Shown: piece after piece, positions 1,596-22,100 of the stretch
Numbering within the stretch: position 1 is the stretch's first letter
How the letters are laid out: each line of letters opens with the position of its first letter
DNA from: Escherichia coli
GTDB lineage: Bacteria; Pseudomonadota; Gammaproteobacteria; Enterobacterales; Enterobacteriaceae
Length of the DNA: 64,000 nt
NCBI RefSeq assembly: GCF_051903065.1
Contig: NZ_CP178438.1
Strand: one strand, 5' to 3'
Made by a program: the position numbers and the translations under genes
The notes under the pieces: model-generated
The model's input: only the letters and a program-made list of their open reading frames with translations
Told to the model about the DNA's origin: nothing
Databases searched by the model: none

Positions 1596-1973
1596 AGTTT
1601 CCGCGCAGACGATGACGTCACTGCCCGGCTGTATGCGCGAGGTTACCGACTGCGGCCTGAGTTTTTTAAGTGACGTAAAATCGTGTTGAGGCCAACGCCC
1701 ATAATGCGGGCTGTTGCCCGGCATCCAACGCCATTCATGGCCATATCAATGATTTTCTGGTGCGTACCGGGTTGAGAAGCGGTGTAAGTGAACTGCAGTT
1801 GCCATGTTTTACGGCAGTGAGAGCAGAGATAGCGCTGATGTCCGGCAGTGCTTTTGCCGTTACGCACCACCCCGTCAGTAGCTGAACGGGAGGGACAGCT
1901 GATAGAAACAGAAGCCACTGGAGCACCTCAAAAACACCATCATACACTAAATCAGTAAGTTGGCAGCATCACC
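1596..1973 (-). mobile_element. Truncated IS1 copy (terminal IR, insA, start of insB)
   Basis: Near-identical to the complete IS1 at 21318..22085 in opposite orientation; IS1 end ggtgatgctgccaac (reverse complement) at 1973; homology stops near 1596. Confidence 0.75.
1643..1918 (-). CDS. insA: IS1 InsA
   Basis: 91-aa [13 protein letters not shown]...CSHCRKTWQ zinc-finger InsA. Confidence 0.8.
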
Positions 1974-2004
1974 GACAAATGAGCCCATTGGAATAAGTTA
2001 GAAA

Positions 2005-2760
2005 CTACATATCTGCCAACAACATCCCAGCCATACCATCCAGTCGCTTCTTAACCTTTTCCCAGCCCGGCATAACCTGCCCCATCAGACGGTAAAACTC
2101 CTCGCTGTGGTTGTGCTCAGCCACATGGCATAACTCATGTAGCAAAACATAATCGATACATTCTGAGGATGCCTTAACCAGCCATGGATTCAGGGTCAGA
2201 CAGCCTTTTGCTGAACAGTTGCCCCATTGCGTTTGCATCGCCCGCAGACGTATCGGAGGACGCTCACTGACCCAAAGGGTCTGCGGAATCAGTAAATCAA
2301 GCCTGCGCTGAAAAACATCTCTGGCACGTTCCCGATACCATTCAGCCAGCAAGGCTTTAATCTTTTCTGCCGATTTGTGTCTGACAGTCACTTCCAGACG
2401 CCCACGCAACATTTTCACTCGTTGCGGCACAGTAGCGTCTTCTGTCACTTTCAACTGATATTGCTTACCGAGATAATAATGGCTTTCTCCGCTGACATAC
2501 TGACGCGGAACAATGTGTATCTGTTGCTCCCTGAAATCACGCAGTTGCTGGTATATCCAGCGCCCACGTTTTTTCAGCGCAGACAATACCTCGTGCTCCG
2601 GTGTTTCAGGCGGTACAGAGGCCACAACCCGGCAGTCCGGATAAACCTTAATGAGCACCCTGCCCTTTACGACCTGACGCGGAACACACTGTACGACGAT
2701 GACCTCATCACCATAGACAATGCGTAACGCTTTCATTGATGGCGATTCTTTTTCACTCAT
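2005..2760 (-). CDS. HExxH metal-dependent hydrolase (DUF45/YgjP/SprT-like), last gene of the R-M operon
   Basis: HELCHVAEHNH motif; 4-bp overlap with hsdR stop. Confidence 0.65.
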   Translation of the reverse strand: MSEKESPSMKALRIVYGDEVIVVQCVPRQVVKGRVLIKVYPDCRVVASVPPETPEHEVLSALKKRGRWIYQQLRDFREQQIHIVPRQYVSGESHYYLGKQYQLKVTEDATVPQRVKMLRGRLEVTVRHKSAEKIKALLAEWYRERARDVFQRRLDLLIPQTLWVSERPPIRLRAMQTQWGNCSAKGCLTLNPWLVKASSECIDYVLLHELCHVAEHNHSEEFYRLMGQVMPGWEKVKKRLDGMAGMLLADM

Positions 2761-5700
2761 GATTTCATCAAACCAACGCGCAGTATCTGGATGATGGTTT
2801 CCACAATACGGTTAACCTGATTCATTCCGGCACCAATTTCCCGGCAGGCCGTAAACAGCAGTGGTAGCAGACTTGTCTTAACGACTTTCTCAATGTCCTG
2901 GGGGTTCAGGGAGTTTTCTGCCACCGCTCTAACGATAATGCTGTCCACTTCAAAAGCCAGCTTCGTCCACTTATCCTGCACCTGAACGTCTTTTACCACA
3001 AAAACCTCAGGTAGCTCTTTTTTAAATACACCGTAATACGCCTGAGCATGCTTGTTTACCGCCAGTGCATCCGGGATATCGCTGAGCTTACGGGCTTCAA
3101 CCTGTTCTTCAAACTCACGGAATAAGAGGTACTGCTTAAGTGGATGGTCGAACAGTTTTTCAGCCTCTTCGATTGCCATACGCAGGAGTCTGGAAAAGGC
3201 CTCCTGAGCATACGGATCATCACGCAGCTCCTGCTCAATCATCTTCGTCACACGGGTTTTAATGATGTCGGTTTCATTGCGGGTTTTATTGTTGTCCCAC
3301 TCTTCGGGCTTTTCGCTCTTACCCATTTTACCGACTTCATACACGCCATCCGGTTCACGAACCTCAACGCCGGTGACATGCTTATCCAGCAGTTTTTTCA
3401 CCTGCTCGGCGTAGTCGTCATAATTGACCTGCTCTCCACTGACCTGCATCGCCCACTGGCGCAGGCTGGACATCTGTTTTACGGTTTCTTTATAGAGGTT
3501 TCGGTCTTGTTCCGTAAAGCTCTTGTCGGTGAAGAAGGTGGCGGACTGCAGTGCCACTTTCAGGCATCCGGCAAAGGCCGTTAACGCCTCGAAGAAATCA
3601 TCACGGGTTTTCTGATGGATATCGACCATCTCTCCGTCACGTTCTTCCATTTTAGGCACCAGTACCGCACGTAACTGCTCAGTATCATTTTTGTTTTTGA
3701 CACCAGCAAATATGGCCCACAGCTGGTTATACAGATGCGGCAGGCGCTTGTATTCAGAGCTCATGGCGCTGTACAGCCCGTCAATATCTTTGATGTCGTA
3801 TCCGCCCTGAGTTCGGGAGGCGAGGTCCTGATATTTGCCGATAGTCGTGTCCAGCTCAGCCAGAATACCGCGATAATCAATCAGCAGACCGAACTTTTTT
3901 AGTGGATGCAGTCGGTTCACCCGCGCAATCGCCTGGATAAGGTTGTGGGACTTAAGCGGCTTGTCGATATACAGCACGGTATTCTTCGGCTCATCAAACC
4001 CGGTGAGCAGTTTATCAACGACTATCAGCAATTTGAGCTTCTCATCGGTATCGAAACGACTGATGATATTGCGGGTATACACAGACTCATCCTGCGTGCC
4101 GACGTTATCTTTCCACCATTTCGTCACTTCCGGCAGTTTGCTTTCATCCACCTCAGTATTCCCTTCCCGGGTATCCGGCGGGCTGATAACTACAGCTGAC
4201 TCAAACAACCCGGCTTCATCAAGATACTTTTTATATTTGATGGCGGAAATCTTGCTGTCGCAGGCAAGCTGGCCTTTCAGCCCCTCATCAATATTCTTCG
4301 AGAAGTGCGTGGCGATATCGAGTGCGATCAGACGGATGCGATCATCTGCACTATAAACCTCACCTTTACGGGCATATTTACGCTTAAGGTCGGCTTTTTG
4401 CGCTTCGCTTAACCCATCGGTAATACGATCAAACCAGGCATCTATTGCCCGATCGTTAACCTCAAGGTCGGGAATACGTTCTTCATACAGCAAAGGTGTA
4501 ACGGCTTTATCTTCTACCGCTCGCTGCATGGTATAAGCGTGGACAATCGGTCCGAATTTATTGGTGGTCTTATCTTCTTTTAGCAATGGCGTACCAGTAA
4601 ATGCTACAAAGGCGGCGTTCGGCAGTGCCAGTTTCATTCGCACATGGTTCTCACCACCCTGGCTACGGTGTCCTTCATCAATCAGAACGATGATATCGGG
4701 GCTGGTATTGACGCATTCAGGAAGTTTTGTCGCTGAATTAAATTTCTGGATTAGGGTGAAAATGATGCGTTCTTTACCGGAGCCAATCTGTTTCGCCAGC
4801 ATCTGCCCGGATGTCGCCATTGCATTGGCTTTGTCTTTTTTCCCGGCCAACTCGCCGCCGGATGCAAAGGTACTGCTGAGCTGTTCTTCAAGATCGATAC
4901 GGTCCGTCACCACCACGATACGACACCGCTTCAGGCTGTCATGAAGGATCAGCGCCTTGCTGAGGAACACCATGGTGTACGATTTGCCAGAGCCGGTGGT
5001 ATGCCAGATAACACCACCTTCCCTGCCCCCATCGGGTCTGCGGGTACTGATGCGTTCCAGCAGTCTTTTAATCCCGAACACCTGCTGATAGCGGGCAACA
5101 ATTTTTCCGGTCTTTTTATCAAACAGGGTGAAGAAGCGGGTCATCTCCAGCAGACGTTCCGGCGAAAGCAGACTGATGAGCAGCTTATCCTGCCCGCTGA
5201 CAGCCAGTTCCCCCCCGGCGATTAACTGCTGATACCAGTTGAGATCGCCAACAGGACGATGCTCAAATAACGCATCAATTTGTTCAGTCGATAAAGGATG
5301 GTTGCGCAGGGCATACATCTGCGCATCGGTAATATCCTCTTCGCGCCATGCCGCCCAGAATTTCATTGGCGTATGGCATGTACCGTAGCGCCCGTCATGA
5401 CCGTTAATCGAAAGTAATAACTGGCTGTAGACAAACAGCTGCGGGATTTCATCGTTGAACTGGTTGCGGATACTCTGGGATATCCCCTCGTCAATGGTTG
5501 GCCCTTTCTTGCCATGACCAGCCGGGCTTTTCGCTTCAATAACAGCCAGCGGGATACCATTAACAAAGCAGACAATATCTGGCCTCCGGGTTTCAACACC
5601 ACCTGACCGCAATACCGTAAATTCTTCAGTAAAATGGAACTGGTTATTTTCCGGATGTTCCCAGTCGATCAGCGCAATGGTGGGGTTGACCTTCTTGCCA

Positions 5701-21300: not shown

Positions 21301-21372
21301 TTATAGAATTGATATGGGGTGATGCTGCCAACTTACTGATTTAGTGTATGATGGTGTTTTTGAGGTGCTCCA

Positions 21373-21648
21373 GTGGCTTCTGTTTCTATCAGCTGTCCCT
21401 CCTGTTCAGCTACTGAAGGCGTGGTGCGTAACGGTAAAAGTACTGCCGGACATCAGCGCTATCTCTGCTCTCACTGCCGTAAAACATGGCAACTGCAGTT
21501 CACTTACACCGCTTCTCAACCCGGTACGCACCAGAAAATCATTGATATGGCCATGAATGGCGTTGGATGCCGGGCAACCGCCCGCATTATGAGCGTTGGC
21601 CTCAACACGATTTTCCGCCATTTAAAAAACTCAGGCCGCAGTCGGTAA
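21373..21648 (+). CDS. insA: IS1 InsA
   Basis: 91-aa ORF. Confidence 0.85.
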
Positions 21649-22070
21649 CCTCGCGCATACAGCCGGGCAGTGACGTCATCGTCTGCGCGGAAATGGACGA
21701 ACAGTGGGGCTATGTCGGGGCTAAATCGCGCCAGCGCTGGCTGTTTTACGCGTATGACAGGCTCCGGAAGACGGTTGTTGCGCACGTATTCGGTGAACGC
21801 ACTATGGCGACGCTGGGGCGTCTTATGAGCCTGCTGTCACCCTTTGACGTGGTGATATGGATGACGGATGGCTGGCCGCTGTATGAATCCCGCCTGAAGG
21901 GAAAGCTGCACGTAATCAGCAAGCGATATACGCAGCGAATTGAGCGGCATAACCTGAATCTGAGGCAGCACCTGGCACGGCTGGGACGGAAGTCGCTGTC
22001 GTTCTCAAAATCGGTGGAGCTGCATGACAAAGTCATCGGGCATTATCTGAACATAAAACACTATCAATAA
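21567..22070 (+). CDS. insB: IS1 InsB reading frame (expressed as InsAB' by -1 frameshift)
   Basis: 167-aa ORF overlapping insA. Confidence 0.8.
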
Positions 22071-22100
22071 GTTGGAGTCATTACCTTGATATGGATTCGA

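Follow-up and report, generated by a model that had tools for sequence, protein, structure and literature searches.

Few insertion sequences (ISs) of Escherichia coli are as abundant and active as IS1, and recombination between IS copies has long been established as a source of both inversions and deletions. When two copies face each other across a block of genes, the question arises whether that block can turn round. It is posed here by a stretch of 64,000 nucleotides of an E. coli chromosome (NCBI RefSeq assembly GCF_051903065.1, contig NZ_CP178438.1; the whole stretch is called the window below), in which a truncated and a complete IS1, in opposite orientation, bracket a segment of about 19 kb. 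A first-pass annotation of the window had proposed that homologous recombination between the two copies could invert this segment. We have compared the locus with complete E. coli genomes, and the reading that we consider very probable is that the two IS1 sequences record independent and unrelated events within a pipolin, an integrated element that carries the DNA polymerase piPolB. One of them is an old stub and the other a recent insertion, and no inverted form was seen.

Two IS1 sequences of different age

The elements found at the two ends of the segment are as follows.

1368..1597, minus strand: 3' end remnant of an ISEc52-like element (IS3 family, IS911-related), terminal repeat kept, N-terminal part of the transposase gone
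1598..1973, minus strand: truncated IS1 (IS1 positions 1-376) with the left inverted repeat (IRL), insA and the start of insB'
21309..21317, strand not applicable: left copy of a target-site duplication (TSD), TTGATATGG, from direct comparison
21318..22085, plus strand: complete IS1 of 768 bp, IS1B-like, with intact insA, insB' and A6C motif
22086..22094, strand not applicable: right copy of the TSD, TTGATATGG, from direct comparison

A repeat search over the whole window returned a single long inverted pair, 1598-1973 against 21318-21693, whose arms of 376 nt each are 97% complementary and stand 19,344 nt apart. Aligned base by base, the arms differ at 10 of 376 positions (97.3% identity); the mismatches cluster at IS1 positions 86-124 and 262-304, and the longest perfect runs between the arms measure 137, 85 and 72 bp. 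The chromosome contains about 37 places that match IS1, and the pair is not a chance match. The first-pass annotation had thus correctly described two IS1 copies in opposite orientation that are nearly identical over some 380 bp, and it was equally right about the span of the complete copy and its intact 9-bp duplications, which are identical 9-mers. For the truncated copy, which it had placed at 1596..1973, the strand and the end at 1973 hold, and the start has to be moved from 1596 to 1598. Even this start is ambiguous within 1598-1602, because the bases TTTCC that occupy these positions are common to IS1 and to the abutting ISEc52 remnant.

The complete copy resembles the IS1A and IS1B iso-forms of IS1 in its 768 bp, its terminal repeats, its insA and insB' genes with the A6C -1 frameshift motif, its 9-bp duplication and its AT-rich intergenic site, which is the spacer between the DUF726 and DUF2787 genes. 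Its termini are GGTGATGCTGCC... and ...GGAGTCATTACC; the length and the imperfect terminal inverted repeats (GGTGATGCTGCCAACTTA... and GGTAATGACTCCAACTTA...) are those of an IS1, and the perfect TSD falls within the 8-9 bp characteristic of the family. Both reading frames are intact (91 codons for insA, 167 for insB'), and frameshifting is predicted at the slippery A6C motif at IS1 position 307. Within its first 376 bp it carries five private substitutions that set it apart from the IS1 of E. coli. Elsewhere in the genome collection no copy was found to match it at 100%, and the closest annotated relatives are IS1B copies, at 99.3-99.6%. Many relatives of the window retain an empty site that is exactly 777 bp shorter (a span of 1224 against 2001), and the complete IS1 is for this reason best described as a simple insertion.

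An IS1 at this site was found in only two genomes, those of the sister isolates 23CRST031 and 23CRST027 from Ecuador, whose chromosomes match the first 24 kb of the window at 100% and in the same order. Over this length the window and 23CRST031 differ only by three single-G homopolymer indels (15146, 15437 and 21815), all of which lie in IS903 or IS1 and are probably consensus errors in repeated sequence of the assemblies. It is because of these indels that RefSeq, through the Prokaryotic Genome Annotation Pipeline (PGAP), labels the IS copies as 'frameshifted'; the frames in the window are intact. We had considered, from the PGAP flag, that the complete IS1 might be a dead copy, and rejected this since the window has one extra G in the homopolymer relative to the RefSeq assemblies.

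The left-hand copy is a remnant and not an element: it keeps IRL, at 1973 and facing the M48 metallopeptidase gene and the bracketed segment, and it has neither the right inverted repeat (IRR) nor a complete transposase. It is set apart from the IS1 of E. coli both by its reduction to a stub of 376 bp and by a Cys-to-Arg change in the CxxC motif of InsA, which results from a C at IS1 position 86. At IS1 position 376 the stub is fused to ISEc52 within the 5-bp microhomology TTTCC (1598-1602), and in the stretch around it 13 of 15 bases match between the two elements. To the left of TTTCC the sequence tracks ISEc52 and to the right it tracks IS1. A breakpoint placed in microhomology between two such neighbors points to an illegitimate deletion rather than to the end of a transposition event. 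The remnant at 1368..1597 was aligned to the ISEc52 of strain LIM, and its RefSeq note reads 'integrase core domain, missing N-terminus'; over 1368-1600 the window is 97-98% identical to annotated ISEc52 copies and about 92% identical to IS911.

This fusion is widely inherited, the ISEc52-IS1 junction being present in 160 genomes with a 1.6-kb query and in 164 with a 774-bp query. A rearrangement at the IRL of the stub was considered as a reason for the roughly four genomes that have the fusion and fail the longer query; against it, in MRSN346595 the M48 gene still adjoins the stub, and what distinguishes this genome is the accession of its M48 protein and an IS903B within hsdR. At exactly the same M48-proximal position, 36 other genomes have a full-length IS1. 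The DNA beyond it is different: strain 2452 has an EAL gene and a fimbrial operon there, MB56 an att-like 'tRNA-OTHER' with fimbrial genes. The C at IS1 position 86 is found in the stub and in the full-length copy of strain 2452 and is absent from the other three IS1 copies aligned. Since this private substitution is in both, the stub and the M48-site copy of strain 2452 evidently descend from one insertion, of which the full-length form is the ancestral state.

A pair of IS1 sequences on either side of some 19 kb of DNA, the right one of which appears to encode an intact transposase, could also be viewed as a composite transposon that mobilises the restriction-modification (R-M), recombinase and piPolB genes as a unit. 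The likeness to Tn9 and Tn1681 goes no further, however, than the presence of IS1 on both sides of the cargo. The left outer end is absent (there is no IRR, and the copy ends at position 376 in a fusion to ISEc52), the 9-bp duplication surrounds the complete IS1 alone and not a composite, and the two copies differ in age, with very different times of arrival (160-164 genomes against 2), so that the segment is not mobilisable as a unit. The cargo is, moreover, collinear with that of pipolins that have no right-hand IS1, and we give the composite transposon very little credence.

Much the same must be said of the idea that a past inversion between the two copies gave rise to the arrangement seen today. 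The full-length M48-site IS1 of strain 2452 has no TSD (the nine bases on its left are TCATTTGTC and those on its right AACCATGCG), so some rearrangement has taken place there. The missing duplication is, however, explained by the different outer DNA (fimbrial and EAL genes, an att remnant), the inner side of the element being unchanged. Against such a history stand the perfect TSD of the complete copy and the exact empty site in relatives, as does the collinearity of the 1-24000 stretch with 71 genomes. An odd number of inversions would separate the two TSD copies, and the intact TSD consequently excludes any net (odd-numbered) inversion through the complete copy since its insertion. We consider a past inversion highly improbable.

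Two unrelated IS events, our preferred reading, would have followed one another in an order that we infer from these comparisons. An old IS1 would have inserted beside the M48 gene, where the type I R-M module has its outer end. A later deletion in the lineage of the window would have brought the interior of ISEc52 up against IS1 position 376 at the 5-bp microhomology, leaving the dead 376-bp stub fused to an ISEc52 remnant, with two GmrSD-like DUF262 genes and Hhe beyond. Much later, a different, intact IS1B-like copy would have transposed into the DUF726-DUF2787 spacer and made the 9-bp duplication. The inverted homology of 376 bp would then be a passive by-product, a low-frequency substrate for RecA that has no function as a switch.

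The proposed inversion and other outcomes of the IS1 copies

In E. coli, tens of base pairs of unbroken identity suffice for RecA-dependent recombination, a minimum that the IS1 arms exceed, and a divergence of about 3% lowers the rate of recombination through mismatch repair. The suggestion that recombination could invert about 19.3 kb is thus sound in principle, given 376 bp of homology at 97.3% identity and a perfect run of 137 bp; what it lacks is any sign of inversion here. An exchange would flip 1974-21317 and neither cut nor fuse any gene. The left copy would still be a stub afterwards and the right one still complete; a crossover 3' of position 86 would at most give the complete copy the InsA Cys-to-Arg change of the stub. 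No regulatory consequence of the flip is apparent.

The published record shows that such events do occur. [quoted passage not shown] An inversion of 1.49 Mb between two IS1 copies was fixed in population Ara-1 of the long-term evolution experiment (LTEE; PMC4173774). The LTEE case is like ours in that an IS present twice, in inverted orientation, forms a RecA-dependent substrate; it is unlike ours in that here one arm has only 376 bp and is 2.7% diverged, and that no inverted product has been seen.

Should the segment nonetheless be regarded as one that actively inverts, so that a population contains both isomers and the flip affects the R-M, recombinase and polymerase genes? The length and identity of the arms, the measurable rate of IS-IS recombination, the LTEE precedent and a mention of inversions among pipolins in general (PMC7385651) all speak for it. 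Against it stands a search for the junctions that an inversion would create. Two chimeric queries were built, one joining the outer-left flank and the IS1 stub to the reverse-complemented DUF726 flank, and the other joining the reverse-complemented M48 flank and the complete IS1 to the right flank. Among 5,426 complete E. coli genomes, none contained either predicted junction at a threshold of 80% query coverage (0/5,426 for either query), and the two sister assemblies show the native orientation, collinear with the window. The complete copy has not been net-inverted, as its TSD attests; a crossover within IS1 sequence would rearrange no promoter or gene; and the homology is short and sufficiently diverged, at 2.7%, to be penalised by mismatch repair. 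The recombination events of the mutation-accumulation study, being deletions without exception, also weigh on this side. A programmed, site-specific inversion, or an hsdS shufflon, was tried as a variant and ruled out: there is a single hsdS, without duplicated halves, and there are no short inverted repeats of the recombinase type. Within the segment, no internal inverted repeats of note were found besides the terminal-repeat pair of IS903. On balance, an actively inverting segment seems to us decidedly unlikely, and we infer that inversion is rare in culture.

Several considerations weigh against the reading of two independent events in which inversion plays no part. Only two genomes carry the exact IS1 pair, and finished assemblies represent the majority isomer only, so that the power of the junction survey is low; a minority inverted subpopulation may be present in a culture. 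For the truncated copy, the order of events rests on comparative data, and of the roughly four fusion genomes that failed the longer query a single one, MRSN346595, was inspected.

What the relatives of the window do display is a range of other outcomes. In 12 other genomes an independently inserted IS1 lies close to the right-hand site and is oriented like the complete copy of the window; the annotation was inspected for one genome of each group among the 12. The F5505-C1 type has an IS1B upstream of the WYL gene, 99COLEC has an IS1A at DUF2787, and strain H1 has an IS1A with a TSD of its own, GCACAGCCT, and has no stub; all three are collinear with the window. In the AR_0137 type (6 genomes) an IS1A lies between a shortened open reading frame (ORF) beside hsdR and a WYL gene shortened at its 5' end. 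The shortened ORF is probably a truncated form of the cold-shock-domain gene seen there in relatives. This type lacks about 13 kb, the whole stretch from hsdS and hsdM over the recombinase to piPolB, and the rest is collinear with the window; we read it as an IS1-linked deletion that has left a pipolin remnant without piPolB. The IS1-linked outcomes visible in related pipolins are thus simple insertions, a deletion and different neighboring genes, and not inversions.

Taken with the window, these genomes contain five separate IS1 placements near the WYL, DUF726 and DUF2787 genes (window, H1, 99COLEC, F5505-C1 type and AR_0137 type), which suggests a local hot region for IS1 targeting in the AT-rich spacers of the pipolin core.

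The sister strains contain a third IS1, an IS1A located between two att copies near yecA and about 9 kb upstream of window position 1; it was seen at 3001-3768 of the sister-strain locus and also at 9121-9817 of a further locus. A two-piece, 33.8-kb match of the window to a sister strain had at first the look of a rearranged isomer; it is collinear, and the extra piece is this upstream IS1A. The IS1A lies 31.1 kb from the complete IS1, in direct orientation, and the two have a 270-bp stretch in common at 100% identity in the sister strains. Recombination between them would remove nearly the entire pipolin, about 31 kb, and would matter more than the inversion. IS1-linked deletions, or recombination of the IS1A with the complete IS1, seem likelier than inversion and of greater effect.

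The pipolin and the genes between the copies

The window is E. coli chromosome, and the sequence identifies its bases 1 to about 26804 as part of a pipolin inserted at tRNA-Leu between yecA and pgsA, more exactly between yecA and the leuZ-cysT-glyW tRNA cluster. This identity is established by the motifs of piPolB, by att direct repeats of which the right one (attR) lies over tRNA-Leu, and by a tyrosine recombinase and an integrase, which are listed here.

12885..14021, plus strand: XerC-like tyrosine recombinase of the pipolin core (Pfam Phage_integrase, E = 4e-21)
16105..18705, plus strand: piPolB, predicted primer-independent family-B DNA polymerase, from published signature motifs
24437..25666, minus strand: att-proximal site-specific integrase of the pipolin, from the ORF list and RefSeq annotation
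26624..26804, strand not applicable: pipolin attR (about 183 nt), overlapping tRNA-Leu(TAA) at 26699-26785

For the recombinase, matches to the NCBIfam XerC/XerD models are weak and below threshold. The polymerase at 16105-18705 found no match in sequence searches of Pfam, NCBIfam or PDB, and its identity for this reason rests on its motifs and the RefSeq annotation. The motifs are the D59 and E61 of ExoI, the SVTTDG of PolC, and, in place of KxY, KH-X8-KTRG (KHEVSQLIAMKTRG) with K613, H614 and K623, and their residue numbers are identical to those of the characterised E. coli enzyme (PMC5695915). Three att-like direct repeats of about 183 nt occur in the locus of the sister strain, at 2046-2228, 4360-4540 and 39450-39630, the last overlapping tRNA-Leu. 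A blastn-short search of the window with the tRNA-Leu region found no attL; the left att copies lie upstream of the window start.

E. coli pipolins have been described as integrated at tRNA-Leu between yecA and pgsA, with a conserved core near att and a distal cargo of defence genes, among them type I R-M and hhe, near transposases (PMC7385651; PMC11551731). Strain 2014EL-1346-6, which is also a match to the window, has been named as a pipolin host (PMC7385651). The present copy agrees with those of Redrejo-Rodriguez (2017), Flament-Simon (2020), and Mateo-Caceres and Redrejo-Rodriguez (2024) in its SxTTDG and KH-X8-KTRG motifs, its tRNA-Leu site and att repeats, its XerC-like recombinase and integrase, its att-side core and its distal type I R-M and Hhe cargo beside transposases. 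Nothing essential is different; this copy has three additional IS insertions or remnants, namely an IS1, an IS903B and an IS1-ISEc52 fusion, and that of the sister strain has three att copies.

Between the two IS1 sequences the window contains, besides the recombinase and polymerase, the following genes and elements.

2005..2760, minus strand: YgjP-like / M48 metallopeptidase, at the distal end of the R-M module (Pfam PF01863, E = 6.7e-58)
2757..6044, minus strand: hsdR, type I restriction subunit R (Pfam HSDR_N, SWI2_SNF2, T1R_D3)
6094..6777, minus strand: YecA/UPF0149 and SEC-C motif protein, embedded in the R-M operon (Pfam PF03695, PF02810)
6774..8012, minus strand: hsdS, single type I specificity subunit (PADLOC Specificity_I, E = 3.7e-147)
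8009..9565, minus strand: hsdM, type I methyltransferase (PADLOC MTase_I, E = 5.5e-133)
9869-11104 and 11611-12741: two ORFs between hsdM and the tyrosine recombinase (411 and 376 aa, GC 34-37%)
14420..15476, plus strand: complete IS903B of 1057 bp, with perfect 18-bp terminal repeats (RefSeq name IS903B)
19460..20362, plus strand: HTH-WYL-WCX transcriptional regulator (Pfam, PADLOC WYL)
20424..21242, plus strand: DUF726 (alpha/beta-hydrolase-like) protein, the last gene before the complete IS1 (Pfam PF05277)

The statement of the first-pass annotation that R-M, integrase and polymerase genes lie between the copies is borne out by the type I system (hsdR, hsdS, hsdM), the tyrosine recombinase and the family-B polymerase. 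The two ORFs at 9869-11104 and 11611-12741 have no match in Pfam, NCBIfam or PADLOC and are conserved in related pipolins. The IS903B is flanked by a 9-bp TSD, GCAGCAAAC, at 14411-14419 and 15477-15485, and is missing from relatives. It sits in a small ORF just upstream of piPolB, and its insertion could affect the expression of piPolB; in relatives such as F5505-C1 this small ORF has 639 nt and no interruption.

Elsewhere in the window, at 45413-49283, a unit of about 1.95 kb is present twice in tandem, and the identity between the copies varies over their length from 77 to 98%. On the minus strand they encode DUF5503 paralogues of 267 and 379 aa, one of which has weak similarity to leucine-rich repeats. 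Because the ORF lengths differ, one of the copies may be decaying.

A possible role of IS1 in the turnover of pipolin cargo

As an observation the inverted IS1 pair is real; as biology it is ordinary, and as a functional inversion it is unsupported. All of its components belong to described families (IS1, IS903B, an ISEc52 remnant, an E. coli pipolin), the mechanism is textbook and the biology already known. What the first-pass annotation had overlooked is the identity of the segment as a pipolin, the differing ages and variants of the two copies, and the state of one arm as a dead remnant, together with the documented IS1-linked outcomes in this family of islands, namely deletion and different neighboring cargo. 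What the analysis usefully provides is a correct annotation: a pipolin defence island that encodes piPolB, a type I R-M system, Hhe and two GmrSD-like DUF262 proteins, and that contains an IS1 stub, old and widely inherited, together with a new, strain-specific IS1 insertion.

The DNA to the left of the stub (window 1-1347 and upstream) contains two GmrSD-type DUF262 genes, followed by hhe, a 1,911-aa anti-phage gene. The stub is the border between the R-M module and this second defence block, and a cargo boundary at the M48-side IS1 seems to fit the 'bimodular' model of pipolins that has been published. Because the same insertion precedes either fimbrial, EAL and att-remnant DNA (where it is full length) or the ISEc52-GmrSD-GmrSD-Hhe block (where it is truncated), we put forward, tentatively and as less probable than not, that the old IS1 on the M48 side may be a hinge for the exchange of distal defence cargo in the pipolins of this lineage. 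If this is true, IS1-mediated recombination or deletion would provide a concrete mechanism for the turnover of cargo in the 'bimodular' pipolin, and the newly inserted, intact IS1 would add a second hinge inside its conserved core.

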